Virus record (IMG/VR): IMGVR_UViG_3300032272_000011
Location: 2,628-66,627 of that record
Strand: one strand, 5' to 3'
DNA length: 64,000 bases
Source: a virus
Lineage: Duplodnaviria > Caudoviricetes
In this document: in pieces, positions 13,117 through 43,005 of the stretch
Position numbering within the stretch: position 1 is the stretch's first letter
Layout: the number at the start of each line of letters is the position of its first letter
The notes under the pieces: generated by a model
What the model was told of the DNA's origin: nothing
Databases searched by the model: none
Seen by the model: only the letters and a program-made list of their open reading frames with translations
Translations under genes and position numbers: made by a program

Positions 13117-13117
13117 C

Positions 13118-13351: not shown

Positions 13352-13941
13352 TCTTCAACATCCGTGGAACCAGTGGGTCGGGCAAGACCACACTGGTGAA
13401 AGACGTCATCGGCTGGCTCACTGCCGAAGGCGCGGTGCTCCACGAGCACTTCCATCCTGGCCGCAAGCAACCACTGTGGTTCCAGCTCACCCGGCGCAAC
13501 GGTGAGGTGTGGTCGTTCATCGGCCACTACAACGCAGCGTGCGGCGGGTGCGACACCATCAACAGCATGGACTGGGTCTTCGAACTGGTGAAGGAGCGCC
13601 ACTTCGCCTCCGACCATCTGGTCTTCGAGGGGCTCATCGTTTGCTCCGATGCCCGGCGCATCATCGAGCTGGCAAAGGAGCACCGGGGTCAGCTCAAGGT
13701 CATCAACCTCAAGACCGACAAGGAGGTTTGCCTGGAAGGCATCCGCGCCCGACGCACCGCGCGTGGGGTCGACCCCAACGCACCCTTCAAGGAGTCCGTG
13801 GAACGCAACGTCAAGGCCAAGATGCGCACCTGCGAGAAGACGGCGGAGCGCATCGAGGCGGAGGCTCCCGGCACGGTAAAGCACATGACCCGTGACGAGG
13901 CCCGAGACTACCTGTACCAGTACGTGAGGTGGACGCCTTGA
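13348..13941 (+). CDS. P-loop kinase, probable 5-hmdU DNA kinase
   Basis: NIRGTSGSGKTT, GGCDTI, VFEGLIV; context. Confidence 0.75.
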   Translation: MIFNIRGTSGSGKTTLVKDVIGWLTAEGAVLHEHFHPGRKQPLWFQLTRRNGEVWSFIGHYNAACGGCDTINSMDWVFELVKERHFASDHLVFEGLIVCSDARRIIELAKEHRGQLKVINLKTDKEVCLEGIRARRTARGVDPNAPFKESVERNVKAKMRTCEKTAERIEAEAPGTVKHMTRDEARDYLYQYVRWTP

Positions 13942-14798: not shown

Positions 14799-15133
14799 AC
14801 CGTGACAAGCTCACCTGGAGAGAGCGCTTAGTCAAGCTGCACTTCGCCTTGGTCAGCACCCAGCCCAGCTCGTCCATGAGCAAGAAGCAGCACGCGAAGT
14901 GGGCCAAGAAGCACCACGACGAGATGGTCTTGGACCTCTGGCTCCATCACCTGGAGCACGAGGGGGCGCGGACCACCGAAGGCAAGACGTGGCTGAACCA
15001 CGTGCGCGACAACGAGTTTCCGAAAGTCAGCTCGGCCATCAAGCTGGCGGAGTGGTTGACCGACGCAACGCCTGACATGTACGACGGCGGGATGTCGGTC
15101 TGGGAAGAGTTCACTGGGAGATTTTCAACGTGA
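14795..15133 (+). CDS. Hypothetical protein
   Basis: Coupled on both sides. Confidence 0.5.
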   Translation: MNRDKLTWRERLVKLHFALVSTQPSSSMSKKQHAKWAKKHHDEMVLDLWLHHLEHEGARTTEGKTWLNHVRDNEFPKVSSAIKLAEWLTDATPDMYDGGMSVWEEFTGRFST

Positions 15134-16116
15134 TACACGTCAACACCCGGAATCCAGATGAGGGGTTGCAGGAGGTAGCCAAGCACCTGCTTGTCCACGG
15201 TTTCACCCGCAATAGCCGCAACGGCACCGTGCTCGCCTACGGCGAACCCGTCATGACCGAAGTCACCCACCCCACCGAGCGTGCGGTGCTCTGGGCCAAG
15301 CGGGACGCCAACCCGTTCTTCCACGTCATGGAAGCGCTGTGGATGCTGCACGGCGGTCAGGACGTGGCCTTCGTGAAGGAGTTCAACTCCAAGATCGTCA
15401 ACTACAGCGATGACGGGGCGACGTTCAACGGTGCCTACGGTCACCGGTGGCGCCACCACTTCGGCAAGGACCAGCTGAAGCTGATCGTCGCGGCCCTGAA
15501 GAAGGACCCCCAGTGCCGGCGCCAAGTGCTCAGCATGTGGGACGGCCACCGGGACCTCGGGCTCCAGTCCAAGGACCTGCCCTGCAACACCCACGCCTAC
15601 GTGCAGATCGATGCGATGGACAAGCTCGCTCTCACGATGTGCAACCGCTCCAACGACCTCGTGTGGGGCGCCTTCGGGGCGAACGTCGTCCACTTCACCT
15701 TCCTCCAGGAGTACCTCGCCTCCGCCCTGGGCAAGGAGATGGCACCCTACCGCAGCATGAGCGCCAACCTCCACTGCTACCTGGACATCCACGAGGGTCT
15801 CCTCCGGGACTTGGCCAGCCGCGACTTGGTGCCCAGCACCTACAGGTCAATGGAGGAGAGAGAGCGGTGCCCGCTGATGTCACTGCCCGTGAACCGATGG
15901 CAGCGTGAGCTGGACATGTTCATGGCTGACACCGAGACCAGCTTCGACGACCCGTTCTTCACGACCGTCGCTGTGCCGATGCGCAACGCCTGGAGGGCCT
16001 TCAAGAACAAGGCCGACCCTCAGCGAGTCGATGCCGCTCTCGAGCACGTGAAGGACATCGGAACCTGGGACTGGAACGCAGCGTGCGCGACGTGGCTCCA
16101 TCGGAGGTTGAAGTAA
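15130..16116 (+). CDS. Thymidylate-synthase homologue, probable dUMP hydroxymethylase
   Basis: RRQVLSMWD, DLPCN, NRSNDLVWGAFGAN, SANLHCY. Confidence 0.85.
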   Translation: MIHVNTRNPDEGLQEVAKHLLVHGFTRNSRNGTVLAYGEPVMTEVTHPTERAVLWAKRDANPFFHVMEALWMLHGGQDVAFVKEFNSKIVNYSDDGATFNGAYGHRWRHHFGKDQLKLIVAALKKDPQCRRQVLSMWDGHRDLGLQSKDLPCNTHAYVQIDAMDKLALTMCNRSNDLVWGAFGANVVHFTFLQEYLASALGKEMAPYRSMSANLHCYLDIHEGLLRDLASRDLVPSTYRSMEERERCPLMSLPVNRWQRELDMFMADTETSFDDPFFTTVAVPMRNAWRAFKNKADPQRVDAALEHVKDIGTWDWNAACATWLHRRLK

Positions 16117-16640
16117 TGGCTTGGCCCACACAGAAGCTCGTCACGGCTCTCCGCGAAGCAGGAGCCGTCCGACGCTGCCACGCCACCCCCTGGCATGGTG
16201 AGTACAACATCGCCACCCACAGCTACAACGCAGTCAACCTGCTCTTGATGCTGCACCCAAACCCGAGCATGGAACTGGTGAAGGCCATACTCTGGCACGA
16301 CGTGCCGGAACGGTGGCTCGGAGACCTGCCCGCACCCGCGAAGTGGAGCAACGGAGAGTTCGCCAAGCTGTACGAATCGATGGAGCGCAAGGTGGAGTGG
16401 GTCATCGGGACCTACGTTCACCTCACCGCGAGCGAGCGAGTTTGGCTGCACGCAGTCGACAAGATAGAACTGCTGCTATCCGCCAAAGAACAGTTGGCTT
16501 CTGGGAACCAAGCTGCGGCACAATACGTAGCAGCGCTCCTGGGCTGGTTCAAGACCGCCGTGATGCCCCAGTCGTGCACTGACTTCGTGAACGAACACCG
16601 ATACGAAAGGCTCCCCGATGTCGTACCAACAGAATCTTGA
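16116..16640 (+). CDS. HD-domain (YfbR-like) deoxynucleotidase
   Basis: VRRCH, IATHSY, LWHDVPE..GDLPAPAK, DKIE. Confidence 0.8.
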   Translation: MAWPTQKLVTALREAGAVRRCHATPWHGEYNIATHSYNAVNLLLMLHPNPSMELVKAILWHDVPERWLGDLPAPAKWSNGEFAKLYESMERKVEWVIGTYVHLTASERVWLHAVDKIELLLSAKEQLASGNQAAAQYVAALLGWFKTAVMPQSCTDFVNEHRYERLPDVVPTES

Positions 16641-17427
16641 CCAAGTGGCCGCGTCCGACGTGGAGGGCCTGAAGAAGGCCCAGAAGAGTTACGGCGACTC
16701 GTGGATGAAGCGGGGTGGTGTCGGTGCCTTCATGATGCTGGCCCGCAAGTGGGACCGCCTGGAAGTGGCGATGACGAAACCTGGTGAGGCCGACCAGTAC
16801 GACCTCTTCGGTCGAACGCTGGCGGACCCTCGCAGCGAGGGCATAATCGATGACATCCGCGACCTGCGCCGCTACCTGCTCCTCGTCGAGGCCCAGCTCA
16901 TCGAACTGGGGGTGAACCCCGACCACCGTGACAACGCCTGCGCCCACGAGTGGGAGTACGACGACCAGCCCAAGCTGTGGATCTGCATGCGCTGTGGCAC
17001 GAAGTGCGGCCCGGTCGGCGACCCCCACGGACCGATCACCGCGTGGGACACCGAGAAGGGGGTGCAGTGGCCGAAGACCAACGCTACGCGCCAGTGGGAT
17101 CCAGACAAAGACATGGCGACCACCACGACGTGCGTCCACAACTGGGTTCAGTACTCTTCCTCGGACAATCGCTCCGATTGCAGCCACTGCAGTGCTCAGT
17201 GGTTCCGGACCAAGGCGCTCGCTCCGAAGGTTGGTGTCCCCAGAGGCTACGACCTGTGCGGTAGCGGCATCATCCGGAAGGTGGGCGACATGGCGGCGGA
17301 CCTCGCCAAGAAGTCCGAGCCCCGGAAGTGCCCCGCGCTGAAGGACGGGTTGTGCTCGTGGGAGATCTACCACGGCAACGTTCGCTGCTCCACCTGTCTT
17401 GGTTCGCGTCTCTCGAGCGGGAAGTGA
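16618..17427 (+). CDS. Nucleotide-modification-associated (DUF1599/Nmad1-like) protein with Cys-rich tail
   Basis: KSYGDSWMKRGGVGAFMMLARKWDRLE, DLRRYLLLVEA; C-terminal CxxC pairs. Confidence 0.6.
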   Translation: MSYQQNLDQVAASDVEGLKKAQKSYGDSWMKRGGVGAFMMLARKWDRLEVAMTKPGEADQYDLFGRTLADPRSEGIIDDIRDLRRYLLLVEAQLIELGVNPDHRDNACAHEWEYDDQPKLWICMRCGTKCGPVGDPHGPITAWDTEKGVQWPKTNATRQWDPDKDMATTTTCVHNWVQYSSSDNRSDCSHCSAQWFRTKALAPKVGVPRGYDLCGSGIIRKVGDMAADLAKKSEPRKCPALKDGLCSWEIYHGNVRCSTCLGSRLSSGK

Positions 17428-22515: not shown

Positions 22516-23316
22516 ATGTCTGACATCAGCCGCATCAAAGACCGCATCAAGAACCTGCTCAACCTCGCCGAGAACGACGGGGCCATGGACGGGGAGGTGG
22601 ACAACGCGCTGAGGTTTGCCCGCCGGTTGATGCTCAAGCACAACCTCGACGAGGCCGACGTCAAGGACGCGCAGGGAGCGCACGAGAAGGCCGCAGACTA
22701 CGAGACCACCGAGTACACCAAGGAGTGGACCCGCACCGTAGGAACGCGGTTCACCGCCTGGGAGACGGAGCTGATGTTCGCCATCCAGGAGTTGATCGGA
22801 ACCGTCAAGTGGTTCCGGGGCTCTACCCGCGACCGCATGACGAAGATGGGCACCATCGAGTTCAACCCCGTGACCGGTATGCCGGCCAAGGTCCGTCAGG
22901 TCGTGTTCTACGGGCCGAAGGGTGACGTGGCGGACGCTCTCGAGATGGTTCGCGAGTGGCAGGAAACCATCGTGACCATGGCTCGCCTTCGCTTCGGGGG
23001 CGCCCTCCGAGGCCCCGGCAAGAGCTACGCCGAGGGGTTCGCCCGCTCCCTGCTCCTGAAGGTGCGGGCCATCCACAGAGAGGAGCGCCTCCAGATCAAG
23101 GGTGGTGGCTCCACCGCGCTAACCTTGGTCCGCTCCACCGACCTCATGCTCGCGAAGCAGAAGCACGCGGACGTGTGGTTGGAGCAGTCAGCCGGCATCC
23201 GCCTCACCAAGGGCACCCCCCTGGGCAATGGCTCCCACGACTCTTCCGCCTTCACCGCCGGCAAGGCCGACGGATCCCGCGCCAACTTCTCCCAGCGACG
23301 CAAGTTAGGAAACTGA
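22516..23316 (+). CDS. DUF2786-family protein
   Basis: RIKNLLNLAE...EVDNALRFARRLMLKHNL. Confidence 0.7.
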   Translation: MSDISRIKDRIKNLLNLAENDGAMDGEVDNALRFARRLMLKHNLDEADVKDAQGAHEKAADYETTEYTKEWTRTVGTRFTAWETELMFAIQELIGTVKWFRGSTRDRMTKMGTIEFNPVTGMPAKVRQVVFYGPKGDVADALEMVREWQETIVTMARLRFGGALRGPGKSYAEGFARSLLLKVRAIHREERLQIKGGGSTALTLVRSTDLMLAKQKHADVWLEQSAGIRLTKGTPLGNGSHDSSAFTAGKADGSRANFSQRRKLGN

Positions 23317-23318
23317 AC

Positions 23319-23870
23319 GTGAAATACCTTTTCTTCGTGGACGTCGAGACGACGGGCATCGACGAGCAGCATGACCTCCTCCTGGAGATTGCCGGGTGCG
23401 TCCTCGACGCGGAAACTCTTGATCAGGTGGCAGGCATGGTAGAGTGGCCCGTTGCCCAGGGGGACACCATCCCGAAGGTGCTCCTGGACCCGTGGGTTCT
23501 CGAGACCCACACCAACAACGGGCTCTTCGACGCGGTGGTCAGCAAGGCAGCGCGTCCAATCAGCGAGATCGACGAAGAGCTGAGCAAGTACCTCGGTTTC
23601 TGGGTCAGCGAGGACGAGCCGAAGATCCGCGTGGCGGGGGCGTCGGTGCACTTCGACTTGCGGTTCATCCGCAGGTGCTTGCCCAAGACTGCGGCGCTGC
23701 TGCACCATCGGGTGTTCGACACCAGCACCCTGAAGGGTGCGCTGAAGACTTGGACTGGCCTGGAGGACGCGGTGTTCGTCAAGAACGAAGCGCATCGGGC
23801 GGTGGCCGATGTAGAGGAAGAGATATGCAACGCTCGAATATTGAAGCACTTGATCTGTGGGACTACGTGA
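23319..23870 (+). CDS. Oligoribonuclease-like DEDDh exonuclease
   Basis: VDVETTG, LEIA, GASVHFDLRFI, HHRVFDTSTLK, HRAVADV align with Orn motifs. Confidence 0.8.
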   Translation: MKYLFFVDVETTGIDEQHDLLLEIAGCVLDAETLDQVAGMVEWPVAQGDTIPKVLLDPWVLETHTNNGLFDAVVSKAARPISEIDEELSKYLGFWVSEDEPKIRVAGASVHFDLRFIRRCLPKTAALLHHRVFDTSTLKGALKTWTGLEDAVFVKNEAHRAVADVEEEICNARILKHLICGTT

Positions 23871-25833: not shown

Positions 25834-26202
25834 ATGACCAATACTTTCGACATCGGCCTCTGCGCGAGGAAAGTGGGAGCGAGCCAGTGCCAGAACCGTA
25901 GGGGTCATGGCTCTGGTGCTCGCTTCTGTATGGTTCACGCTGGTGAACGTTTCATGCACACTTTCTATTGCCGGGCCCACGGCGCAACCGACTGGGGCGA
26001 CCCTGTCAACGACATCGGCATCGCCGAAGCCGCCCTCGCCTTCGCCCACCGATTCGCTGGCTCGGTCACCACGGTCGACGTGAAACCAGTGCTCAGCGCT
26101 CCCTCCGGGCAGTACTATGTGGTGAATATCGACGCCACGATGGTCTTTTCGGTAAAGTCGATGCGCCCGGCCGACGAAGAGATGGGTGGAGAAACGACAT
26201 GA
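25834..26202 (+). CDS. Hypothetical protein (leaderless start)
   Basis: TATGCT-N6-ATG; coupled to DGC. Confidence 0.5.
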   Translation: MTNTFDIGLCARKVGASQCQNRRGHGSGARFCMVHAGERFMHTFYCRAHGATDWGDPVNDIGIAEAALAFAHRFAGSVTTVDVKPVLSAPSGQYYVVNIDATMVFSVKSMRPADEEMGGETT

Positions 26203-26762
26203 ACGCCCAACAACGACGCATCGACCTTCTGACCCAGCTCCTCGAAGCCCAGACCCGCCGAGCGGACCGGTTGGAGCACGAGTCCCTGACCGACCCCCTC
26301 ACGGGGCTCCACAACCGCCGAGCGTTCGACCGCAAGGTGCAGAAGCTCCAACTCGAGGACACCACCTTCACCGTGGTGCTCATCGACATGGCGAACCTCA
26401 AGGCAGCCAACGAGAAGCTGGGGCACGCCGGGGCCGACGACATCCTCGTCCAGGTGGCCAACTGCCTGCGCCGCGAGGACATGGTCGCCCGCATCGGTGG
26501 CGACGAGTTCGCGGTCGTGCTCCCCGGAGACGCGGGACCCAGTGTCCGTGATCGAATCGAGCGTTCGTTCGACGCAGTGGAGCTGGGGCCCAGGGTGAGC
26601 ATCTTCCTCGTGGCTGCCCTGGGCCAATGGAACCCGGGCATGCAGTTCCGTGACGTGCTGATCCGGGCCGACAAGGCGCTGGAGGCTCGCAAGCTGAAGC
26701 TGAAGGTGGCCCGTGGTGAAGTCACGACCCGTGAGGAAGCGTTGAAGGCGGTAGCGTCATGA
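26199..26762 (+). CDS. Diguanylate cyclase (coiled coil + GGDEF)
   Basis: TDPLTGLHNRRAF, LIDMANLKAANEKLGH, RREDMVARIGGDEF (RxxD I-site and GGDEF). Confidence 0.9.
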   Translation: MNAQQRRIDLLTQLLEAQTRRADRLEHESLTDPLTGLHNRRAFDRKVQKLQLEDTTFTVVLIDMANLKAANEKLGHAGADDILVQVANCLRREDMVARIGGDEFAVVLPGDAGPSVRDRIERSFDAVELGPRVSIFLVAALGQWNPGMQFRDVLIRADKALEARKLKLKVARGEVTTREEALKAVAS

Positions 26763-28452: not shown

Positions 28453-28908
28453 ATGAAGTACCTTGTCCCTTTGCTGTTGCTGGCCGGTTGTGCCAGCCCT
28501 CCCACCGTGCTCGAGAAGACCGTTGTCGTGATTAGTCGCGTCCAGGTCTCCTCGCTTGACTTCGACGGCGGTCTCGTCACCGTGACCGTGCGCTCCGACG
28601 GCATGAACGAGATCGACGTCATGCTGTTCGACTCCGAAGTCCAGCTCCGGCACACGACCTCAAACCTTCCCGCCACCTTCGCCTTCGGAGGCTACGTCAT
28701 CACGATTTCGGTAAAGCACGAGATCACCGTGGACGAAGAGAAGAGTAGCAGCGAGATTGCTGCCTTGGAGACAACCCATGCCCTGGAAAGCTTCCTTCAG
28801 CGTCTCGAACAACGAGCATCGCGTCCTCGACGACAACTATCAATGCGCGGCTCTTGGAGCGACCTCCGAGATGGCGGAACGCATCGCCGAGGCCCTGAAC
28901 CGCGATGA
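28453..28908 (+). CDS. Lipoprotein (leaderless start)
   Basis: LLLLAGC lipobox; TACCGT-N6-ATG; 3' end overlaps next gene by ~130 nt. Confidence 0.5.
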   Translation: MKYLVPLLLLAGCASPPTVLEKTVVVISRVQVSSLDFDGGLVTVTVRSDGMNEIDVMLFDSEVQLRHTTSNLPATFAFGGYVITISVKHEITVDEEKSSSEIAALETTHALESFLQRLEQRASRPRRQLSMRGSWSDLRDGGTHRRGPEPR

Positions 28909-33519: not shown

Positions 33520-33547
33520 TTTAGTTCTCGTGTTCTCGAGACGATGA
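33520..33547 (+). promoter_or_regulatory. Degenerate sigma28-type promoter
   Basis: TTTA-N16-GACGATGA, then hairpin and cctggagacgaccgATG leader like the 37-41 kb cassettes. Confidence 0.4.
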
Positions 33548-33601: not shown

Positions 33602-33997
33602 ATGAAGACTACGACGAACGAAGAGAAGATCGCGGCCTGGATTGAGGGCGCTGAGCGTGAGGTGAAGCGGATTCGGGAGGTGGGCGCACGCGCTGACTTG
33701 CTGCATCTGGTGGGTGAGGCCCAGGAGAACGACCTGCGGTGCGCGGAGCGGGTGAACAACCTGCTGGGCCGGGTTGCCGAGGAGGAACGGATGACGAGGC
33801 TGCTGACGGTGGCGACGAAAAGGTTGGCGGACGGCATCTTCAACACGAAGAAGGTCGGGGGCGCTCTCGACGAGCTGGTGGAGTATGCCTGCGACCAGCT
33901 GGGATGCCAGTCGGGCGACATGATCAGCGTTTGGCGCTCGAACGCGGCGGCGGACTTCTTGTCGTCGATGCGTCGACTGCAGAAGGAGCTGGTCTGA
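33602..33997 (+). CDS. Hypothetical helical protein
   Basis: GGAGA SD. Confidence 0.6.
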   Translation: MKTTTNEEKIAAWIEGAEREVKRIREVGARADLLHLVGEAQENDLRCAERVNNLLGRVAEEERMTRLLTVATKRLADGIFNTKKVGGALDELVEYACDQLGCQSGDMISVWRSNAAADFLSSMRRLQKELV

Positions 33998-34100: not shown

Positions 34101-34128
34101 TAAAGTCGTCGGTTGTCGACGACGAAGA
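34101..34128 (+). promoter_or_regulatory. Degenerate sigma28-type promoter
   Basis: TAAA-N16-GACGAAGA then hairpin and GGAGA SD. Confidence 0.4.
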
Positions 34129-34167: not shown

Positions 34168-34374
34168 ATGAACACCAACACCCAACACCCCCTTGATGAG
34201 CTGGACGCGGAGATGGCCGCGTGGGCCAAGAGCCATGAGCTGCCGTCCTACTGCCCGAGCTGTGACGAGCACCACCACTCCCTGGTCTGCGAGGACGTGA
34301 CCGAGGAAGACGACTGGTGCGGCTGCGGCGCGTCCGATTACCCCCACGTCCACCTGCGAGAGGAGCAGATATGA
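34168..34374 (+). CDS. Small Cys/His-rich protein
   Basis: CPSC, CGC; GGAGA SD. Confidence 0.5.
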   Translation: MNTNTQHPLDELDAEMAAWAKSHELPSYCPSCDEHHHSLVCEDVTEEDDWCGCGASDYPHVHLREEQI

Positions 34375-34989: not shown

Positions 34990-35562
34990 ATGGGTGTACA
35001 CAAGTTTCGTCAGCCGCTGCTGATCGTGGGCGAGGACGTCGAGTACGTTCTGCCCCTCACCGAGGGTCGCGTCCACGACGCGATCAAGACCGACCTGCCC
35101 GACACGCCGGGCACCGACGACCTGGGGCTGGCGGAAGCCATCGGGTCCGTCCTGACCTCCATCGAGACCAACGGCGGAGCTACCGCGACGACCGTCGCCT
35201 ACGCGCTTTGGCGCGTGGTCCTCGACCCGCTGAAGTACGACGCCGGCTCGGACGTCACGGTGCGGGTGCGTGCGGTGACCTCGGCACTGGGAACGGTGTC
35301 GGACCTCGTCGACGTTGAGGTGAAGCTCGTGGGCGAAGACGCCTCGGTGGGCGCGGACCTCAACGGGACCGCCGCGACCCAGCTCACGACCTCCGCTGCG
35401 GACTACGACTTCGTGGTGGACGGGACGACCCTGACGCCTGGAGCCGAGATCCAGCTGAGGCTGACGATCTCCCGGGATGACACGGCCGGGGCCATCGCCG
35501 GAACCGTTACCGCGACGAAGGTGAGCCTGCTGCACAGCGCTCCGAACATCGACGCGAGCTAA
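34990..35562 (+). CDS. Virion-like beta-sandwich protein
   Basis: GGAAAGG SD; Thr/Asp/Val-rich like head decoration proteins. Confidence 0.5.
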   Translation: MGVHKFRQPLLIVGEDVEYVLPLTEGRVHDAIKTDLPDTPGTDDLGLAEAIGSVLTSIETNGGATATTVAYALWRVVLDPLKYDAGSDVTVRVRAVTSALGTVSDLVDVEVKLVGEDASVGADLNGTAATQLTTSAADYDFVVDGTTLTPGAEIQLRLTISRDDTAGAIAGTVTATKVSLLHSAPNIDAS

Positions 35563-36089
35563 GCAGGCTCGTACCAGTCGAGCGCAAGGCTGACTGCCTG
35601 GTTGCCCCCATCGATGTTGGTCAGACGGAAGAGGTAGTCCTCGCCTGTCTTGAGGATCCACTCGATGGGGGGCTGCCGACCTGCCGTCCCGCCTGGGAGG
35701 ATGCTGGAGGCCAGCAGGGTGCCATCGTCAGTGAGCGTGGGCGTGTGGGAGACGAGGGCCGTGGCTGTGTTGCTCGAGAACCTGTTCAGGTTCGGCGTGA
35801 GGATGCTGGTGCCCGCGCTGGAGTACGTGACGCCCTCGTAAACCTCGATCTGCATGTCCCCGCCTGCGGCTGCGAACCACCGCATGTGGGCCGCTTGGTC
35901 CGCGTGCACTTGGACGATGACCTCCACGTCTCCGTTGTTGGCGACGGAAGCGTTGGCGTGGGACGCCTCGAACATGATGCCCCGGTGGACGTTGGCATGG
36001 ATCTCGTCCATGGTGACCAGCGCGTTGTTCCAGGAATCGACGTGAGCGAGGTCGCCCCCGGTCGCGTCCTTGATGACTGAGATGCTCAT
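35559..36089 (-). CDS. Virion-like beta-rich protein (only clear minus-strand gene)
   Basis: AAGGAG SD and TAGAAT upstream on minus strand; stop overlaps that of the convergent gene. Confidence 0.6.
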   Translation of the reverse strand: MSISVIKDATGGDLAHVDSWNNALVTMDEIHANVHRGIMFEASHANASVANNGDVEVIVQVHADQAAHMRWFAAAGGDMQIEVYEGVTYSSAGTSILTPNLNRFSSNTATALVSHTPTLTDDGTLLASSILPGGTAGRQPPIEWILKTGEDYLFRLTNIDGGNQAVSLALDWYEPA

Positions 36090-36188: not shown

Positions 36189-36544
36189 AGGAGAGGGGCT
36201 CCAGCAGCGCCGCTGGGGGAGCGGGGAGGCGCCCAGGGGGCTCAGCGCCGCCTTGCGCAGCAGCGGAAAGGCGGCGCTGAGCTGTGTGATCGATATAACT
36301 TCCTGGGGAAGAGGGGGTTGGGCTGGAAAAGCGCTGTTTTGCGGGAAGTTTGTGGAGCACTTGACAAGAGCGGAGTACCGGAGCAACACTATTGGGGGAA
36401 GGAGTTACGACGTTTTGAAAATCGGGAGTGCGATCTTATGGACCCCCTAAACGTCCTGCAAAGTGTGGTTTGCTCACGGACTCACGATTGTCGGCTGTTT
36501 CTGAGGGTGGTAACCTCCTGTGGCCCAGTGGAATGCAACGGAAT

Positions 36545-36752
36545 ACTCATGGATCTCTCTTTTCAAAAGAGAGAGTAGAGAGAGAAAGAGCGTATATAGG
36601 AGTCGAGAGAGCCTCCTCCTCCTCCGTAGCGTTTTGACGCTCTCACGTGAGTTCCATGAGTAATTGTGGGAACCCCCCTGGGCAGAGGGAGTTGCCATGC
36701 TCAAGTGTGACTCATGGATGGGTGCGGGGCGTGAGTCCATGAGTCACGTGAG
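36545..36752. repeat. Left boundary element (ACTCATGGA/CACGTGA motifs and purine tract)
   Basis: 36560-36602 matches reverse complement of 42027-42069 at 38/43; four ACTCATGGA/TCCATGAGT copies. Confidence 0.75.
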
Positions 36753-36811: not shown

Positions 36812-36981
36812 GACGTGAGAATGTGGACTTGTCGGGTTGACGTGGGAAAAGGCGTTGGGTGCGGGCCCCATGCTCACCGAGGGGCTGTCGCCGATTTTGC
36901 GACGAGGTTCTTGGTGACTCCTGTCGAGCCAACAGGTTACGACGATTACGGCCCTTTAGTCAGCGATAAGAGCCCCCGGAT

Positions 36982-37080
36982 CGCTCTGAGCCTCCTGCCG
37001 ATCCTCTGAGCCTCCTGGACATCCTCTGAGCCTCCCCGGTTTCACGGCCGAGAGCCTCCTGCATCCTCTGAGCCTCCCGG
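36982..37080. repeat. ~20-bp imperfect tandem repeats
   Basis: atcctctgagcctcc core, 4 copies plus a partial. Confidence 0.85.
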
Positions 37081-37292
37081 GATTTGCCCGCGTGCGCTCG
37101 AGAGAGGAAAGGCGCGCCCCCGCGCGGGTTTGATCAAAGGCGCGCGGCGGAAAAGGTTCACGCCGGCAAACCTTTGCCTTGGCAAAGGTTCACGGCGGGA
37201 AAGGTTTTCGACGGCGCGCCTTTGGATAAAGGCAGACCTCCCCGTGCCTTTAGGCACGCGCCCCAGCCGGGGTCGGGCCCCGCCTACTCTCT

Positions 37293-37320
37293 CTATCGTC
37301 GATCGACGCCCGGGGCTTTA
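37293..37320 (-). promoter_or_regulatory. sigma28-type promoter (leftward)
   Basis: TAAA-N16-GACGATAG on minus strand. Confidence 0.65.
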
Positions 37321-37362
37321 CACGTTTCCAGAAACGTCTTTGAACACGTTTCTAAATACGTG

Positions 37363-37390
37363 TTATGGCCGGCGGCCCGATCGCCGATAA
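37363..37390 (+). promoter_or_regulatory. sigma28-type promoter
   Basis: TTAT-N16-GCCGATAA. Confidence 0.6.
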
Positions 37391-37457
37391 GAGAAGTGTC
37401 GGGGGGCGGTAAGTAAGCCGCCCCCGCCGCCCGCGCCCCCTACCGTTAGGTCCCGCC

Positions 37458-37811
37458 GTGCTAAAGCTCGTCCCCGCTAACCCGTCCCTCGTCGCCGATT
37501 TTGGCCTGCTTCCCCTGCCCGGCGGCGCCGCCCCCTTAGTCGCCTGGGATGTAACCTTTGCCGGCTCCCCGGATTCCCTGCTTTACGTGTCCGGTACCCG
37601 TACCGGCGGGGTGGCCGTGGTAATCGTTTCCCCCGACGATTGTTATACGGGGCGCGTATTTACCGCGTGGGTCGGGGCCGGGGCGGTTCCTTGGGTCCGG
37701 CGTTTCTTTCCGTCCGCGCGGGTTTCGGCCGCCGCCGCTAAGGCTGCTGGTCTGGCGCCTTTGGGCGGGGGCGCGTGCGTGGGTACCGCGTTTACCCCCG
37801 CCGCGCTGTAG
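37458..37811 (+). CDS. Early cassette protein, CA-free sense strand
   Basis: GTG start; 117 aa with no E, Q or H; own promoter. Confidence 0.6.
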   Translation: MLKLVPANPSLVADFGLLPLPGGAAPLVAWDVTFAGSPDSLLYVSGTRTGGVAVVIVSPDDCYTGRVFTAWVGAGAVPWVRRFFPSARVSAAAAKAAGLAPLGGGACVGTAFTPAAL

Positions 37812-37823
37812 GTTACCGCCGGG

Positions 37824-37864
37824 GCGCCTTTGGCCTTGGCGCTACGCGCCAAGGCCAAAGGCGC
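37824..37864. repeat. Perfect 19-bp hairpin with 3-nt loop
   Basis: gcgcctttggccttggcgc-tac-gcgccaaggccaaaggcgc. Confidence 0.9.
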
Positions 37865-37877
37865 GCCAAGAAACGTG

Positions 37878-37905
37878 TAAAGGCCGGCGCGCCGATCGCC
37901 GATAA
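37878..37905 (+). promoter_or_regulatory. sigma28-type promoter
   Basis: TAAA-N16-GCCGATAA. Confidence 0.75.
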
Positions 37906-37963
37906 AGAGAGTAGGCCGGGGGAGACCCGGCGCCCTACCCAACCCCCAACCCGGAGACGAACG

Positions 37964-38296
37964 ATGAGTAAGCTTTCCCACGACGCCGAGATGTGGAACG
38001 CCTTCGCTGGCGCCTGCGTTTTCCCGGACGGCACCGAACCTTTCTTCGCGGAAACCTCTCTGCAAAGCTACGACGCAATAATGGTTCTCGACAGCCAGGG
38101 TTACCCCGGCGAGGACCAGAAAACCGTTCTGACGCTGAACGTTATCGACAGCGAAGGAAACCCGAAAGAGGTCTGGGAGCGTAGCTTCAGCGATGAACTC
38201 ACCCGCGAAGAAATCATTCAGTGGGCGGGGGATATCGGAACCAGCGTCACGGAGAAGGAACTGCTGCTGGCCGGTTTCGTCCGCATTCCTTGCTAA
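37964..38296 (+). CDS. Early cassette hypothetical protein
   Basis: GGAGA SD; own promoter. Confidence 0.7.
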   Translation: MSKLSHDAEMWNAFAGACVFPDGTEPFFAETSLQSYDAIMVLDSQGYPGEDQKTVLTLNVIDSEGNPKEVWERSFSDELTREEIIQWAGDIGTSVTEKELLLAGFVRIPC

Positions 38297-38305
38297 GGAA
38301 ACGTG

Positions 38306-38333
38306 TAAAGGGCGCGGCGCCGATCGCCGATAA
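38306..38333 (+). promoter_or_regulatory. sigma28-type promoter
   Basis: TAAA-N16-GCCGATAA. Confidence 0.75.
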
Positions 38334-38392
38334 AGAGAGTAGGCCGGGGGTGACCCCGGCGCTGGCCCAACCCCGCGCCCGAAAGGCAACCC

Positions 38393-38638
38393 ATGAAGAA
38401 GCTAACCCGCTCCCAGGCCCGCTATCTCCTCGTCGAGGGCAAGAATATCGCTCGCCGCCTGCAGGTCATTACTACCCTCCTGGACGCCGCCTGCCCGGCC
38501 GGAGGGCCGCCCTCGGAGCTGGACGCCGAGTTCGCCTCGCCGGACGGCCAGGACTACTCGGAGGCCCTCCTCGGCGCCGTCCGAAAGGTTGCTGCCCACC
38601 TCGATTTGGACGCTGAAGACATCTTGGAAAACGCCTAA
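38393..38638 (+). CDS. Early cassette hypothetical protein
   Basis: Own promoter; its stop is the TAA of the next -35. Confidence 0.7.
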   Translation: MKKLTRSQARYLLVEGKNIARRLQVITTLLDAACPAGGPPSELDAEFASPDGQDYSEALLGAVRKVAAHLDLDAEDILENA

Positions 38639-38663
38639 AGGGCGCGGCGCCGATCGCCGATAA
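38636..38663 (+). promoter_or_regulatory. sigma28-type promoter
   Basis: TAAA-N16-GCCGATAA. Confidence 0.75.
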
Positions 38664-38702
38664 AGAGAGTAGGCCGGGGGAGTCCCGGCCTGGAGCCGAC
38701 CG

Positions 38703-38930
38703 ATGAAAACCGAAACCCGCATCTCCCCTACCCTTTCCCGCGTCGCCGTTGGCGGGGTCCTCCTGGATACCCTGAAAAGCCGCGCTGGAGCGCTGGTTTA
38801 CTTCGTCGCCGATGAACTTACGGACGAAGTTATCTTACAAACCTACGACAAAGCTGCGGCCGAGGAACTGTTCACCGCGCTAACTGTTATCGCGCCTGAA
38901 GATTCAGGCCCGGTCGTCCGGCGCCGCTAA
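38703..38930 (+). CDS. Early cassette hypothetical protein
   Basis: GGAG SD; own promoter. Confidence 0.7.
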   Translation: MKTETRISPTLSRVAVGGVLLDTLKSRAGALVYFVADELTDEVILQTYDKAAAEELFTALTVIAPEDSGPVVRRR

Positions 38931-39069
38931 AGGCACGCCCCGTGCCGCCTTTGCCCCTGGGCTAAAGGCAGCGCGGGGGAAGCATTTAGCCGGGCGCGCC
39001 TGGGTATGAACAGACTCCCCCGTGCCTTTAGGCACGCGCCCCAGGCCGGTCTCCCCCGGCCTACTCTCT

Positions 39070-39097
39070 TTATCGGCGCGATCCGGTCCGGTCTTTA
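39070..39097 (-). promoter_or_regulatory. sigma28-type promoter (leftward)
   Basis: TAAA-N16-GCCGATAA on minus strand, back-to-back with 39113. Confidence 0.7.
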
Positions 39098-39112
39098 GGC
39101 TTTTCTTTTTAC

Positions 39113-39140
39113 TAAAGCCAACCCCGCCGATCGCCGATAT
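39113..39140 (+). promoter_or_regulatory. sigma28-type promoter
   Basis: TAAA-N16-GCCGATAT. Confidence 0.75.
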
Positions 39141-39195
39141 AGAGAGTAGGCCGGGGGTGACCCGGCGACCCAACCCCGCGCCCGAAAGGCACCCG

Positions 39196-39528
39196 ATGAT
39201 GAACCTTGACGACCTGATCGAAGAGCTGACCGACCTGCGGACCGAACTCGCCCACTCACGCGGGATTTCCGAGGAAAAGGCGGGAGAGATCGAAGTGATG
39301 ATCGCCTACCAGCCAAACTACCCCCTGCGCGTAGGAATCAGCTCGGTGACGGGCTTCCAGGATTCCAACCAGCCCGTGTACCTTTCCTCGGGCGGCGAAA
39401 GCAACTACGTGACCAAAGAAGCGTGGGATGGCGGCTTAGTGGAGCTGGAGGACCTCTGCGAGTACTGCGGAAAACACGCGGAGGAAGAAATCTGCGAAGA
39501 GGCGCGGGATTGCGGCGAGCTGCTCTAA
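39196..39528 (+). CDS. Early cassette hypothetical protein
   Basis: Own promoter; IAYQPNYPL motif; C-terminal CxxC. Confidence 0.7.
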   Translation: MMNLDDLIEELTDLRTELAHSRGISEEKAGEIEVMIAYQPNYPLRVGISSVTGFQDSNQPVYLSSGGESNYVTKEAWDGGLVELEDLCEYCGKHAEEEICEEARDCGELL

Positions 39529-39546
39529 GGCGCGCCAGGAAACGCC

Positions 39547-39574
39547 TAAAGGCCCCGGCGCCGATCGCCGATAA
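39547..39574 (+). promoter_or_regulatory. sigma28-type promoter
   Basis: TAAA-N16-GCCGATAA. Confidence 0.75.
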
Positions 39575-39613
39575 AGAGAGTAGGCCGGGGGTGACCCGGC
39601 CTGGAGCCGACCG

Positions 39614-39880
39614 ATGAAGAAAATGACTGGATGCAAGCGTTGCGGGATGGCCGGGGTGGGGTTTGACACGCGCACTGGGTACCACTTGGCGTGTGCCGTT
39701 CTGGCGCAAGAAGCTTTCGTGGTGTACGACTTAGACCCTGAAAAGTGCTCTCACTGCGCGCATACGAAGTTTCGCCGGACCTCCGATTCTGTGGTCCCGT
39801 TTTGCGCCGAATGCGGCTGCAACCAGTTGCTTCGCGACCGGGCAGAAACGTCTAAAGCCGACGCCGCCGATCGCCGATAA
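39614..39880 (+). CDS. Early cassette Cys-rich protein
   Basis: Three CxxC; reads through the next promoter. Confidence 0.6.
   Translation: MKKMTGCKRCGMAGVGFDTRTGYHLACAVLAQEAFVVYDLDPEKCSHCAHTKFRRTSDSVVPFCAECGCNQLLRDRAETSKADAADRR
39853..39880 (+). promoter_or_regulatory. sigma28-type promoter
   Basis: TAAA-N16-GCCGATAA. Confidence 0.75.
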
Positions 39881-39940
39881 AGAGAGTAGGCCGGGGGAGA
39901 CCCGGTCGCTCGCCCAACCCCTCGCCCGAAAGGCACCCCG

Positions 39941-40261
39941 ATGCAAACCACCACCCCGAAGCTGACCCACTCTGGCTCCAAGGCTAACCTCTGGGAGGCT
40001 CTCCACGCCCGCGCTGCTTCGACCGTGAAGCACCACCTGTCGGACTTCTACCACGACGCCATGTGGATCGCGGCCCACCTCTCCGAGGGCCGGACCGGTC
40101 AGTTCTTCTACTCCTGGAACCTTTGCGGCACGCATATCGGGGAAGCAGTAAAGGAATACATGGAGGGCGGAAGCATCGTAACGGCCCCCATGGTGAAGGT
40201 TACCTGGGACCGCACTTCAGACGACGGCCGCGTTCGCTGGTCCGTTGAAGACGTTTCCTGA
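39941..40261 (+). CDS. Early cassette hypothetical protein
   Basis: Own promoter. Confidence 0.7.
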   Translation: MQTTTPKLTHSGSKANLWEALHARAASTVKHHLSDFYHDAMWIAAHLSEGRTGQFFYSWNLCGTHIGEAVKEYMEGGSIVTAPMVKVTWDRTSDDGRVRWSVEDVS

Positions 40262-40267
40262 AACGTC

Positions 40268-40295
40268 TTTAGGTCGGCGCGCCGATCGCCGATAA
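40268..40295 (+). promoter_or_regulatory. sigma28-type promoter
   Basis: TTTA-N16-GCCGATAA. Confidence 0.7.
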
Positions 40296-40335
40296 AGAGA
40301 GTAGGCTGGGGGAGACCCGGCCTGGAGACCCCGCC

Positions 40336-40587
40336 ATGAACCGCACCGCACGCCGAAGCCCTTCCGTCCTTTCCCTCGCAGCTACCCTCTGCGCCGCCAC
40401 CATCGAGGGGCACATCTCCCGCAAGCAGCTCAACGCCGTCCTCGAGACGCTCCAGGACGCCCACATGGGGTTCCAGATGGGGGCCGACTACGACCTGGAC
40501 GGCAACGGCCTGAAACAGGCGCAGGCAGATACCTTGCTCGAGATGCTGAATCACCTCGAGGATAGGTACCCCAAGAAAGGTGTTTGA
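40336..40587 (+). CDS. Early cassette hypothetical protein
   Basis: GGAGA SD; own promoter. Confidence 0.7.
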   Translation: MNRTARRSPSVLSLAATLCAATIEGHISRKQLNAVLETLQDAHMGFQMGADYDLDGNGLKQAQADTLLEMLNHLEDRYPKKGV

Positions 40588-40621
40588 TTTAGCGCGGACT
40601 GGGGGCGCCGATCGCCGATAA
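40588..40621 (+). promoter_or_regulatory. sigma28-type promoter with degenerate -35
   Basis: GCCGATAA at 40614; TTTA 22 nt upstream. Confidence 0.5.
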
Positions 40622-40681
40622 AGAGAGTAGGCCGGGGGTGACCCGGCCTCCCGCTCTGGCCCCTGACCGAAAGCTGATCCC

Positions 40682-40771
40682 ATGGATAACCTTTTCTCCC
40701 GCGTCGCTCGCCTGCTCGTCATCGGTTCCAGCGCTGGAAGCTTTCTCTCGCTCGTCGTAGTTTTCGCCTAA
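40682..40771 (+). CDS. 29-aa hydrophobic peptide
   Basis: MDNLFSRVARLLVIGSSAGSFLSLVVVFA; occupies a full cassette slot; below ORF-track cutoff. Confidence 0.45.
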   Translation: MDNLFSRVARLLVIGSSAGSFLSLVVVFA

Positions 40772-40796
40772 AGCTGACCCCGCCGATCGCCGATAA
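40769..40796 (+). promoter_or_regulatory. sigma28-type promoter
   Basis: TAAA-N16-GCCGATAA. Confidence 0.75.
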
Positions 40797-40842
40797 AGAG
40801 AGTAGACCGGGGCTGACGCCCCCTTGCCCAGGACCCAACGCC

Positions 40843-41097
40843 ATGAAGACCGCAACCCTCACCAAGACCCAAGAGCGCGTGCTCGACCAGATCCACCTCG
40901 CCCTGATCCACGTCACCTGCAAGAACCCCTGCGGCCTCTGGGGCCTGTACGTGACCGACACCGGCAAAGGGTACGCCGTCAAGGGCATCCACAAGGCGAC
41001 GCTGAATGCGCTCGTCAAGGCCGGAAAGGCGAAGTGGCGCCGCATTGACTACCACCAGCTGAACATTCACTACGTCCTCGAATCAGTGCTGGACTGA
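40843..41097 (+). CDS. Early cassette protein, wHTH-like
   Basis: AGGA SD; IHKATLNALVKAGKA. Confidence 0.65.
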   Translation: MKTATLTKTQERVLDQIHLALIHVTCKNPCGLWGLYVTDTGKGYAVKGIHKATLNALVKAGKAKWRRIDYHQLNIHYVLESVLD

Positions 41098-41116
41098 AGG
41101 CGCGCCAAGAAAGGTG

Positions 41117-41144
41117 TAAAGCGTAGGCGCTACGTCGCCGATAA
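41117..41144 (+). promoter_or_regulatory. sigma28-type promoter
   Basis: TAAA-N16-GCCGATAA. Confidence 0.75.
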
Positions 41145-41207
41145 GAGAGGTATAAGGGGGCGCGGCGCGCGTCCTCCCCCGCCCGGCCCCGTAACGGTAA
41201 CCTTGCC

Positions 41208-41441
41208 ATGCCTACCTCTTCCTGCCCCGTCGTCCTTACCGCCGCTAACCTTGCTTACGACGCGCTTCTCGCTAACGGGGCTGCGGCCGTCGCTAACGGG
41301 TTCCCGCTCTGCTCGGACGGTTACCCCCTGGCCTCGTCGCTGCTCCCCCTCTGCGCCGCCCTCGCCGTCCTGGAGGGTCGGGGTCGGCTCGCTGTAAGCG
41401 TCGCTGCCGACTTCCTTTCTGAGGCTGAAGGTATGGTGTAA
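41208..41441 (+). CDS. Early cassette protein, CA-free sense strand
   Basis: 77 aa hydrophobic; no Q, H, K or I; own promoter. Confidence 0.6.
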   Translation: MPTSSCPVVLTAANLAYDALLANGAAAVANGFPLCSDGYPLASSLLPLCAALAVLEGRGRLAVSVAADFLSEAEGMV

Positions 41442-41656
41442 GCCGTCTTTGTTAGGGGTGGGCGTGCGCTGCTAAGGCGCGCGCGTCTGTCTCTTCGTCG
41501 TGGAGAAAGTAAGGAGGGGGGTACCTTCGAGGGCGTGGCGCCACTGCCCCTACTCCAGCCACCAAAATCCATTACCCCACCCAAATCAGTTGTCATACTT
41601 TCCAGAATCGCCTCAAACCACTTGTCGTTCGTTCGTCTTCAGCCGATATCTCTTGT

Positions 41657-41905: not shown

Positions 41906-42165
41906 TACTCACGTGACTCACGTCCCTGCAAACACCAAAGCACGCTAAACCCTTCTGGCCCAGGAGGTACTCACGCAACTCACGTGACTCAAGCTTTTTC
42001 AAGGTTGCGAGCAGAGAGCAGCGAGCCTCCTCTATACACCCTTTCTCTATCTCCTCTCTCTTTTGAAAAAGAGTGAGTTCCATGAGTAAACCATTGCAAG
42101 TACCTCCCCGGCAGCGGTTTGCCGTGCTCATGGAACGGTTTTACGACTTGAGCATTCCATGAGTC
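41906..42165. repeat. Right boundary element (inverted partner of 36545-36752)
   Basis: CTCACGTGACTCA and TCCATGAGT motifs; 42027-42069 inverted match to left element. Confidence 0.75.
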
Positions 42166-42339
42166 AAAGTCAGGAGTCGAGACAGCGGCACGCCGGAGCA
42201 AAGCGAACGGCGGGCCGGCTCCCCTCCCCCCACCGTGCGCTCCGCTTCGGCGTGGCGTCCCCTGGGCATCGCGCCCCCGTGCGCTACGCTTCGGCGGCAC
42301 GCCCTTGCTCTTCACGCGCCAAAACGACAGAACAGAGTC

Positions 42340-43005
42340 GTGGCAAAGAAGACCAGCAAAATCGAGGAGCAGTGGCCTGACGGCGTGGACCCCACCAAGC
42401 TGAAGGCAAAGCCCAACTATCGCGGCACGCGCGCGAAGGGGCCGAACAAGAGTAAGGGTGAGAAGGGTCCGAACCTCCACCCCTACACGAAGCTGACTCC
42501 CGCGATCAAGGCCGACATCGTCAGCTGCCTCTCCAAGCGCTTCCACATCGGCAACACCTGCGCCGCGATCGGCGTCAGCTACGGCTCATTCAACAATGAG
42601 CGCAAGAAGGACCCGGAGTTCGCCGCAGCCATCATGGAGGCCAAGCGCCTCTACACGGAGCTGATCGAAGGCACCATTCACTGCCGAGCGATCGACGGGT
42701 GGAAAGAGCCGGTGTTCGGCAAGATCGACAAGGTCTACAAAGACGAGGACGGCAACCTCGTCAAAGAGAGCACCACCGGGGTCGTGGGCCACGTCACCAA
42801 GTACGACAACAAGCTGCTCCTGGCCATGGCCAAGCGGTTCATGCCGGATGAGTGGAACGCCACTCAGAAGATCGAGCAGAAGAGCGAAGTGTCCGGCTCC
42901 CTCGCCGTAGACTCCTCTCTCACCCTCGCTGACTTGGACGCTGAAACGAGAAAGGCGCTGCGGTCGTTCCTACAGAAGGCCAAGCGCAATGAATCGGGAG
43001 ATTGA
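42340..43005 (+). CDS. terS: Terminase small subunit
   Basis: HTH (IGNTCAAIGVSYGSF), RAIDGWKEPVF, KYDNKLLLAM; precedes TerL. Confidence 0.75.
   Translation: MAKKTSKIEEQWPDGVDPTKLKAKPNYRGTRAKGPNKSKGEKGPNLHPYTKLTPAIKADIVSCLSKRFHIGNTCAAIGVSYGSFNNERKKDPEFAAAIMEAKRLYTELIEGTIHCRAIDGWKEPVFGKIDKVYKDEDGNLVKESTTGVVGHVTKYDNKLLLAMAKRFMPDEWNATQKIEQKSEVSGSLAVDSSLTLADLDAETRKALRSFLQKAKRNESGD

Follow-up and report, generated by a model that had tools for sequence, protein, structure and literature searches.

We analysed a repeat array between positions 37293 and 41144 of a 64,000-nucleotide stretch of viral DNA (hereafter the window), which comprises bases 2628-66627 of the 66,627-bp virus record IMGVR_UViG_3300032272_000011; 2,627 bases of the record fall outside it. 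The record belongs to an uncultured phage, has terminal repeats and is rated complete. The array holds 13 copies of a motif of the type TAAAG-N15-GCCGATAA, 11 of them rightward and two leftward. This array is real and highly non-random, and judged by sequence its two boxes are best explained as a predicted sigma-28 (FliA-type) promoter, which would make the 3.9-kb stretch an array of compact expression cassettes. The sequence itself establishes the architecture of the units, their statistical excess, the conservation of the boxes across phage lineages and the lack of recognisable sigma or RNA polymerase genes. That the units are active promoters, what reads them, where transcripts begin, what an accompanying hairpin does, when expression occurs and whether motility is involved are matters that we infer.

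The repeated motif and the sigma-28 consensus

Every copy listed in an earlier, sequence-only reading of this DNA was recovered when we rescanned the window. TAAA is exact in 10 of the 13 copies; the -35 box reads TTTA in the copy whose -10 box begins at 40288 and TTAT at 37383, and the copy at 40614 has none. Wherever a -35 box exists, the distance from TAAA to the -10 octamer is 16 nucleotides (nt). Eleven copies have GCCGATAA as this octamer, and the other two have GCCGATAT (39133) and GACGATAG (37300). TAAA-N16-GCCGATA occurs nine times against 0.00 expected, and GCCGATA by itself 16 times against 3.3. The relaxed form TAAA-N16-GNCGAWRD gave 13 matches against 0.05 expected, three of them outside the array (26153, 28712 and 34101), and across the 66.6-kb genome all relaxed matches lie either within the array or upstream of a gene. 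As the same reading had stated, 11 copies head a short open reading frame (ORF) and two face left; the ORFs behind the rightward copies encode 29-117 amino acids and begin 39-67 nt downstream. Taking the 13 array copies together with four diverged ones, 15 of 17 stand directly before a small gene.

The sigma-28 consensus has been given as TAAAGTTT-N11-GCCGATAA (PMC2859248, PMC7286023) and, in general form, as TAAAGWWY-N11/12-RYCGAWRN (Yu et al. 2006, quoted in PMC8762339). The array boxes equal the consensus at all 13 positions of TAAAG and GCCGATAA. TAAAG is exact in 10 of the 13 array copies and in three of the four diverged copies. RYCGAWRN is matched by GCCGATAA (11 copies) and GCCGATAT (one copy), and the copies with GACGATAG, GACGAAGA or GACGATGA depart from it at Y only. 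The spacer is N12 in all copies that have a -35 box and in the related lineages described below. A sigma-28-family architecture had been proposed in the sequence-only reading and is upheld in both boxes and spacing, but its placement closest to WhiG/SigD is not, since the general consensus in its N12 form already gives a 16-nt distance (PMC8762339). Judged by protein similarity, the closest cultured phages have proteobacterial hosts (Pseudomonas, Shewanella and Rhizobium), which makes FliA the more likely counterpart. Transcripts would begin 7-8 nt past GCCGATAA, either at the hairpin or immediately before it.

The four diverged copies outside the array (26153, 28712, 33520 and 34101) each have a start codon 18-60 nt downstream. 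Those at 33520 and 34101 had been noticed earlier and are real; the motif scan added the other two. All that is kept in these four copies is TAAAG, the spacing, G-CGA-W-R-A and (A/G)AGT. Because the leader variant CCTGGAGnCGACCGATGAA is common to array cassettes and to diverged units at 33.6 and 34.2 kb, the module has spread within the genome; diverged copies located at 26-34 kb that share the leader would be its older members.

The array itself had no match by blastn among 50,697 phage records, and its 24-nt promoter core had no exact match elsewhere in IMG/VR. A motif scan of related phages, proposed earlier as a check, turned up two uncultured lineages that carry multi-copy promoters with the same boxes. 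Scanning metagenomes with TAAAG-N15-GCCGATAAAGAGAG gave contig L108 (= L093, L023) and four short contigs from sister samples. This lineage 2 (L108 with L096, L111, L112 and L117) has seven promoters that follow T(A/C)AAGTTC-N12-GCCGATAA; an A-tract precedes them, their spacer is unrelated to that of the array, and the L108 group has no hairpin. Contig L108, whose terL is 54% identical, shows synteny with this phage over the stretch between terL and the head genes. The lineage-2 promoter is present in only one IMG/VR contig. Lineage 3 (L025, terL 53%) has five copies of TAAAGTCC-N12-G(C/T)CGA(T/A)A(A/T), two of them forming a divergent pair as in the array. Only TAAAG, the 16-nt distance and the GNCGAWRA box are shared by all four promoter sets. 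Because boxes and 16-nt spacing are kept while the spacers are unrelated across lineages, the conservation points to selection on the boxes. We regard this comparison as the strongest evidence for a promoter of the sigma-28 type.

Further agreement with sigma-28 comes from the relatives. The WWY half of the -35 box agrees or nearly agrees with consensus in the related lineages (TTC, TCC). Over 1 Mb of terL-relative loci, seven instances of TAAA-Nx-GCCGATA have x = 15-16, and nine other spacings together yield one. Lineages 2 and 3 each have one promoter that abuts a start codon (GCCGATAA-AGAGAGC-ATG and GCCGAAAA-GTAAAT-ATG), 6-7 nt after the -10 box; the mRNA of these genes would be leaderless, because the ATG sits at the expected sigma-28 start. 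The motif is absent from the cultured phages YuA, PaMx11, Shewanella phage S0112 (first 32 kb) and Rhizobium phage RHph_X3_2 (17 kb upstream of terL), and no cultured model phage with it was found among the relatives checked. In G001-G003, the near-complete relatives closest to this phage (terL 61-63%), the repeats belong to other families, and no more than one sigma-28-like site is present.

The full unit spans about 60-95 bp. Its conserved block reads (AAGGCGCGCCAAG) GAAACGT(G/C) TAAAG nnnnnnn CGCCGATC GCCGATAA AGAGAGT A GGCCGGG-GG(A/T)GA-CCCGGCC, and one of two leaders, CTGGAGCCGACCGATG or CCCAACCCCGCGCCCGAAAGGCA(C)CC-ATG, comes after it. The upstream GAAACGT(G/C) is A-rich, and the shared leaders carry a GGAG or GAAAGG ribosome-binding site. 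In the array copies the seven spacer bases adjoining the -35 box vary and TAAAG is constant. A leader hairpin is present in 15 of the 17 copies, starting 6-10 nt after the -10 box; in diverged copies it has another stem sequence at the same position. We base the hairpin argument on this conserved position, not on folding energy, because z-scores are modest in G+C-rich DNA. Situated at the very 5′ end of the predicted transcript, the hairpin probably protects the mRNA 5′ end or damps upstream read-through.

On the reverse strand the hairpin together with ACTCTCTTTAT scores as terminator-like in nine copies. The leader of the left-facing copy at 39070-39097 contains two hairpins and no ORF; read on the plus strand, this copy is terminator-like at 39043-39062, right after cassette 4, and would close off cassettes 1-4. 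The two left-facing copies would form divergent promoter pairs with short non-coding leaders, their opposite strand being terminator-like and splitting the array into blocks. The repeated units are probably also recombination points for the gain, loss and movement of cassettes. In the only sequencing run that contains this DNA, assembly unitigs break at every copy, and the contigs, which hide rare forms, show no alternative joints.

Such properties could be the main function of the repeat: a recombination module, a terminator or attenuator formed on the opposite strand by the hairpin and ACTCTCTTTAT, or a signal for RNA stability or processing, with the likeness to sigma-28 promoters secondary. 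The copies are 63-95 nt long and 60-100% identical, well beyond promoter needs, and both the reverse-strand terminator scores and the unitig breaks fit such a function, as do diverged units with the same leader 4-5 kb away. We nevertheless consider it quite improbable. It leaves unexplained why the diverged copies and two other lineages should retain nothing but TAAAG, the spacing and GNCGAWRA, and the L108 group keeps the boxes although it has no hairpin. Moreover, 11 of the 13 copies lie at a promoter-like orientation and distance to the next gene, opposite-strand terminators would have little to stop, almost all genes being on the plus strand, and the proposed roles are compatible with promoter function.

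Candidate readers of the array

Six-frame profile searches of the complete genome, with E up to 1-10, gave no match to Sigma70_r2, r4, sigma70-ECF or FliA_WhiG; the only r4_2 match scored 11.7 bits over 20 residues of a 31-amino-acid frame in non-coding DNA. A six-frame search of the complete genome for a T7-type RNA_pol, made with no positive control, also gave no match, and the FlgM profile had none in the genome. The lack of a sigma factor in the window, reported earlier, extends to the outer 2,627 bases. A sigma or RNA polymerase gene in the then unseen part of the genome had been named as evidence that would count against a host sigma, and none was found in the whole genome. With neither a sigma factor nor an RNA polymerase detectable in the phage, the cassettes are most likely read by host core RNA polymerase joined to the host flagellar sigma. 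On sequence grounds we incline mildly to the prediction that host sigma-28 reads the cassette promoters, and go no further because the repeat motif of Pseudomonas phage YuA suggests a precedent for a phage cofactor. YuA also supplies a precedent for a host alternative sigma: its late promoters are annotated as the -24/-12 type, and it is reported to depend on sigma-54 (PMC10914365).

Several points weigh against host sigma-28 as the reader. The WWY half of the -35 box is mostly unmatched here (G/C-rich, GGC or GCC), the spacing is uniformly one base longer than the commonest bacterial spacing in three lineages, and bases beyond the sigma-28 boxes are conserved (GAAACGT upstream, CGCCGATC and AGAGAGT around the -10 box); these extra bases and the added spacer base may serve a phage factor as contacts. 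The 13 copies resemble one another largely through recent duplication, and copy number alone therefore overstates the independent evidence. The template actually transcribed may be chemically modified: the phage has thymidine-hypermodification genes, and for this reason the promoters are probably read on modified DNA. By analogy, an unrecognised specificity factor would have a precedent in YuA, whose own motif is inactive without phage factors (PMC10914365). No RNA run contains this DNA, the only public run being a sediment DNA metagenome, probably that of the source sample. The phage has no tRNA gene as a host clue. When 185,579 species genomes were searched with the extended motif, nine scattered single hits resulted, among them Methanoregulaceae, Bacteroidales, Pelagibacteraceae and Salinicola, which is about chance and no host clue.

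Some of these features would be expected if the sites were real promoters read with a phage-encoded factor that the profiles miss, either a divergent or minimal sigma or a protein that retargets the host holoenzyme. On this view the cassettes would be middle or late genes whose transcription does not require host FliA. YuA, with the same layout, has the motif CTTTACTTCTTCGG-N7-CACTATA at five annotated repeats and nine mapped starts, inactive in uninfected cells (PMC10914365). The conserved GAAACGT, CGCCGATC and AGAGAGT outside the sigma-28 boxes and a spacing that is uniformly 16 nt, not 15 nt, in three lineages also favour such a factor, and many phage ORFs are without assignment. However, the profile searches above found no sigma domain in the complete genome, and an undetectably divergent factor is not expected to use the exact bacterial consensus in both boxes. 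The same boxes also occur in relatives of 40-64% G+C, presumably with different hosts, which fits a widespread host factor equally well or better. We regard a phage-encoded reader as rather unlikely, though it is the chief competitor of host sigma-28.

Two further searches for a reader ended without a candidate. The lone leftward gene at 35559-36089 encodes a widespread phage protein of no assigned function that is not sigma-like, and we rejected it as the reader; PDB sequence searches with two unassigned phage proteins returned nothing. Matches to the sigma-70 consensus in the window number three against about six expected, and all three lie in called coding regions. That this consensus is not above chance in the window, which has no other recognisable promoter class, would suit a host group whose general, non-flagellar sigma is FliA-like, the sites being ordinary strong host promoters with no motility link. 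We give this idea, which the sequence-only reading had also raised, hardly any credence: we know of no bacterial group with such a housekeeping consensus, the Proteobacteria infected by the nearest cultured relatives have ordinary sigma-70 promoters, and most phage genes, including those for replication and structure, lack the motif.

Relation to known systems

With bacterial class 3 flagellar promoters (FliA of E. coli, Salmonella and Pseudomonas, Bacillus SigD, Streptomyces WhiG and Chlamydia sigma-28), the array shares TAAAG, GCCGATAA and the N12 spacer, as well as the CGA core in diverged copies and, in the relatives, leaderless genes at the expected start distance. It differs from them in lying in a phage genome, in having up to 13 tandem copies and in preceding genes that have no relatives and are not flagellar or chemotaxis genes. 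The G/C-rich WWY half, the additional GAAACGT and AGAGAGT and the 5′ hairpin set it apart as well.

In build the array is most like the promoter-early stem-loops (PeSLs) of T4-type phages such as RB49 and phi1 (PMC2839356, PMC4122927), with repeated intergenic units of promoter, stem-loop, Shine-Dalgarno sequence and start codon among small genes without known relatives. A PeSL consists of an upstream stop, an A-rich stretch, a consensus promoter, a stem-loop with G/C runs, a Shine-Dalgarno sequence and a start codon; one subclass has its stem-loop just downstream of the -10 box, and PeSLs are thought to mediate shuffling (PMC2839356, PMC4122927). PeSL promoters are of the sigma-70 type, whereas those of the array are of the sigma-28 type, with no sigma-70-like match in 25.5-43 kb. 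PeSLs belong to T4-type myoviruses, and the genome here is a YuA-like, siphovirus-type genome whose hairpin lacks a U-tract on the coding strand. Where PeSL-like recombination is concerned, the array offers only the contigs of one run, without alternative joints, and no close relative for comparison.

YuA is the closest parallel in genome layout. The two phages share helicases, ribonucleotide reductase, a thymidylate-synthase-like gene, PolA, primase, a small-gene block with a GGDEF protein, terS/terL and structural genes, and both have a conserved, repeated promoter motif before small-gene blocks; YuA, too, uses a host alternative sigma. In YuA, however, the repeat CTTTACTTCTTCGG-N7-CACTATA is not sigma-28-like and the alternative sigma is sigma-54, and PolA identity is about 50%. 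Nothing similar to the YuA motif was found among the repeat families of the window.

Experimentally known phage transcription begins through the host housekeeping sigma, a virion-carried polymerase or a phage-made sigma or polymerase, and phage use of a host alternative sigma is rare, an example being sigma-54 in YuA. Full-text literature searches, which have incomplete coverage, returned no report of a phage using sigma-28 promoters. We put forward only tentatively, and with more doubt than belief, that a YuA-like phage clade has wired its accessory genes, and perhaps by read-through its packaging and structural genes, to host sigma-28, with expression gated by motility. If this is true, the gate would be whether FlgM has been exported and FliA is free in the infected cell, and the phage diguanylate cyclase behind a weak promoter copy could in turn influence motility and the activity of sigma-28; such a phage would be the first of virulent type with sigma-28 as a main transcription route. 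Should host sigma-28 read the sites, cassette expression would depend on the flagellar checkpoint, a new coupling of infection to host physiology. As predicted, the units would be compact, strong and portable expression modules in which a consensus promoter, preceded by an upstream element, is followed by a 5′ hairpin and a ribosome-binding site. They would also form a second, independent example, outside the T4-type phages, of promoter-stem-loop cassettes that organise fast-evolving phage genes.

Cassette genes and genome setting

Promoter copies, cassette ORFs and flanking repeats are listed in Table 1. Ten of the 11 cassette ORFs were searched against Pfam and PHROGs, and none of them matched a family at useful E-values; ORF 9 is known from direct reading of the sequence. 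A comparison of ORFs 5 and 7 with 5.8 billion proteins recovered only these ORFs themselves. The array is compact: the upstream stop is the TAA of the next TAAAG in two cassettes and the TAA of GCCGATAA in one, ORF 6, which reads through the next promoter. The dinucleotide CA is nearly missing, in a strand-specific manner, from 37347-37849 (0 against 16 expected) and 41108-41541 (1 against 18). These stretches coincide with the first and last cassettes, whose promoter copies are the most diverged, and the coding status of ORF 1 is uncertain because it lies in a stretch without CA.

Table 1. Coordinates, in the window, of promoter copies, cassette ORFs and associated repeats
Feature	Positions	Strand	-10 first base	Remarks
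Left-facing copy, TAAAG-N15-GACGATAG	37293-37320	-	37300	points into ORF-poor, repeat-rich DNA at 36.9-37.29 kb
Degenerate copy, TTAT-N16-GCCGATAA	37363-37390	+	37383	then GAGAAGT and own hairpin; diverges from the 37293-37320 copy
Copy, TAAAG-N15-GCCGATAA	37878-37905	+	37898	perfect 20-bp hairpin just upstream, 37821-37867
Promoter copy	38306-38333	+	38326	motif match
Promoter copy	38636-38663	+	38656	motif match
Left-facing copy	39070-39097	-	39077	back to back with the 39113 copy, -35 boxes 15 nt apart
Promoter copy, -10 GCCGATAT	39113-39140	+	39133	motif match
Promoter copy	39547-39574	+	39567	motif match
Promoter copy	39853-39880	+	39873	motif match
Promoter copy, -35 TTTAG	40268-40295	+	40288	motif match
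Copy without recognisable -35 (GCGG)	40594-40621	+	40614	-10 and all downstream parts intact
Promoter copy, different hairpin GGGGC-TGAC-GCCCC	40769-40796	+	40789	motif match and leader fold
Diverged copy, TAAAG-N15-GCCGATAA, then GAGAGGT	41117-41144	+	41137	motif match
Diverged copy, TAAAG-N15-GACGAAGA	26153-26180	+		18 nt before ATG 26199 of the GGDEF gene
Diverged copy, TAAAG-N15-GACGAAGA	28712-28739	+		then GAAGAGT, hairpin, ribosome-binding site, ATG 28778
Diverged copy, TTTAG-N15-GACGATGA	33520-33547	+		then hairpin and leader CCTGGAGACGACCGATG of ORF 33602-33997
Diverged copy, TAAAG-N15-GACGAAGA	34101-34128	+		then hairpin and leader of ORF 34168-34374
Example leader hairpin, GCCGGG-GGAGA-CCCGGC	37915-37931	+		begins 9-10 nt past the -10 box
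Cassette ORF 1	37458-37811	+		117 amino acids, GTG start, Ala/Gly/Val-rich, no family
Cassette ORF 2	37964-38296	+		110 amino acids, no family
Cassette ORF 3	38393-38638	+		81 amino acids, no family; stop is TAA of next -35 box
Cassette ORF 4	38703-38930	+		75 amino acids, no family
Cassette ORF 5	39196-39528	+		110 amino acids; sole match itself
Cassette ORF 6	39614-39880	+		88 amino acids, Cys-rich, zinc-ribbon-like
Cassette ORF 7	39941-40261	+		106 amino acids; sole match itself
Cassette ORF 8	40336-40587	+		83 amino acids, no family
Cassette ORF 9	40682-40771	+		29 amino acids, hydrophobic; stop within next -35 box
Cassette ORF 10	40843-41097	+		84 amino acids, no family
Cassette ORF 11	41208-41441	+		77 amino acids, no family; in second nearly CA-free stretch
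Inverted repeat, left arm	36534-36602	.		brackets array; 80-88% complementary to right arm
Inverted repeat, right arm	42027-42098	.		just upstream of ORF 42235-43005

The suggestion in the sequence-only reading that the cassettes hold takeover genes is not supported. Immediately downstream of the array come terS/terL. Transcription may continue into the structural genes, because no plus-strand terminator is predicted at 41.4-42.3 kb and lineage 2 has the same promoter type at most 1.7 kb from terL. ORF 42235-43005, which occupies the position of terS in YuA, had no family match, and we label it terS by position alone. The repeats that bracket the array are about 70 nt long, each with a CTCTCTTTTCAAAAGAGAG palindrome and CATGAGT-type motifs, and face outward, one toward the lone leftward gene 35559-36089 and the other toward the ORF at 42235. 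Possible roles are as a pair of regulatory regions or as the termini of a segment that inverts or moves. Integron-like attC cassettes were considered and dropped, the repeats holding promoter boxes in fixed orientation before each gene. No integrase family was matched among the ORFs scanned with Pfam or PHROGs, a scan that did not cover every ORF. At window positions 38327-39569 the depth of unique cassette unitigs is 63-74, compared with 33-37 in the flanking genome; a mixture of strains, additional copies or circles that have been excised could each produce this excess, contig depth being a weak measure.

Ahead of the left-facing promoter at 37293-37320, the minus strand of 36900-37290 is ORF-poor, with AAAGG/CCTTT hairpins and 2.8 tandem 20-nt units (GATCCTCTGAGCCTCCTGCA on the plus strand). 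The product of this promoter may be a non-coding RNA. An Rfam scan of 35.5-42.5 kb found no family above noise, and a CsrB/RsmZ-type identity of the putative leftward transcript is therefore unsupported, though conceivable. In lineage 2, tandem repeats and a palindrome precede the sigma-28-type promoters at 1-100 of L108 (reverse complement) and in L096, L112 and L117; GCGGTCT is present in many copies and GGGACGTTCCCGC(A/C)TTG in three to four, recalling the repeat-rich 36.1-37.3 kb here.

The window has a G+C content of 63%, and its plus strand carries nearly all genes. Gene order follows that of YuA gene for gene, including the GGDEF protein in the small-gene block before terS/terL. PolA is 50-53% identical to those of YuA, PaMx11 and Ab18, and terL is 50% identical to those of Shewanella phage S0112 and of a Rhizobium phage. 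Pfam and PHROG searches identified an SNF2 helicase, a Dda/UvrD-like helicase, a class II ribonucleotide reductase, DNA polymerase A, a DUF5906 primase-helicase, a thymidylate-synthase-like enzyme, a MazG-like pyrophosphohydrolase, the GGDEF protein and a structural module with terminase, portal, head and tail-tube genes. The GGDEF (diguanylate cyclase) gene at 26199-26762 (Pfam E = 5e-23), with the weak promoter copy in front, has YuA gp44 as its positional counterpart.

The thymidine-hypermodification set lies at 9046-17427 of the window and consists of an amino acid:DNA transferase (PF18724), a 5-hmdU DNA kinase with a helical domain (PF18747, PF18723), the thymidylate-synthase-like enzyme, an FAD oxidoreductase and an HD nucleotidase. 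An RNase T/DEDDh exonuclease-domain protein is encoded at 22956-23870. The nearest complete relative, G001 (L082, terL 63%), has repeats of its own at 9450-9800 and 10785-15120, comprising TCTTACGTAAGAC iterons and a second family, AACACAAGTCACC, which also stands immediately before several start codons.

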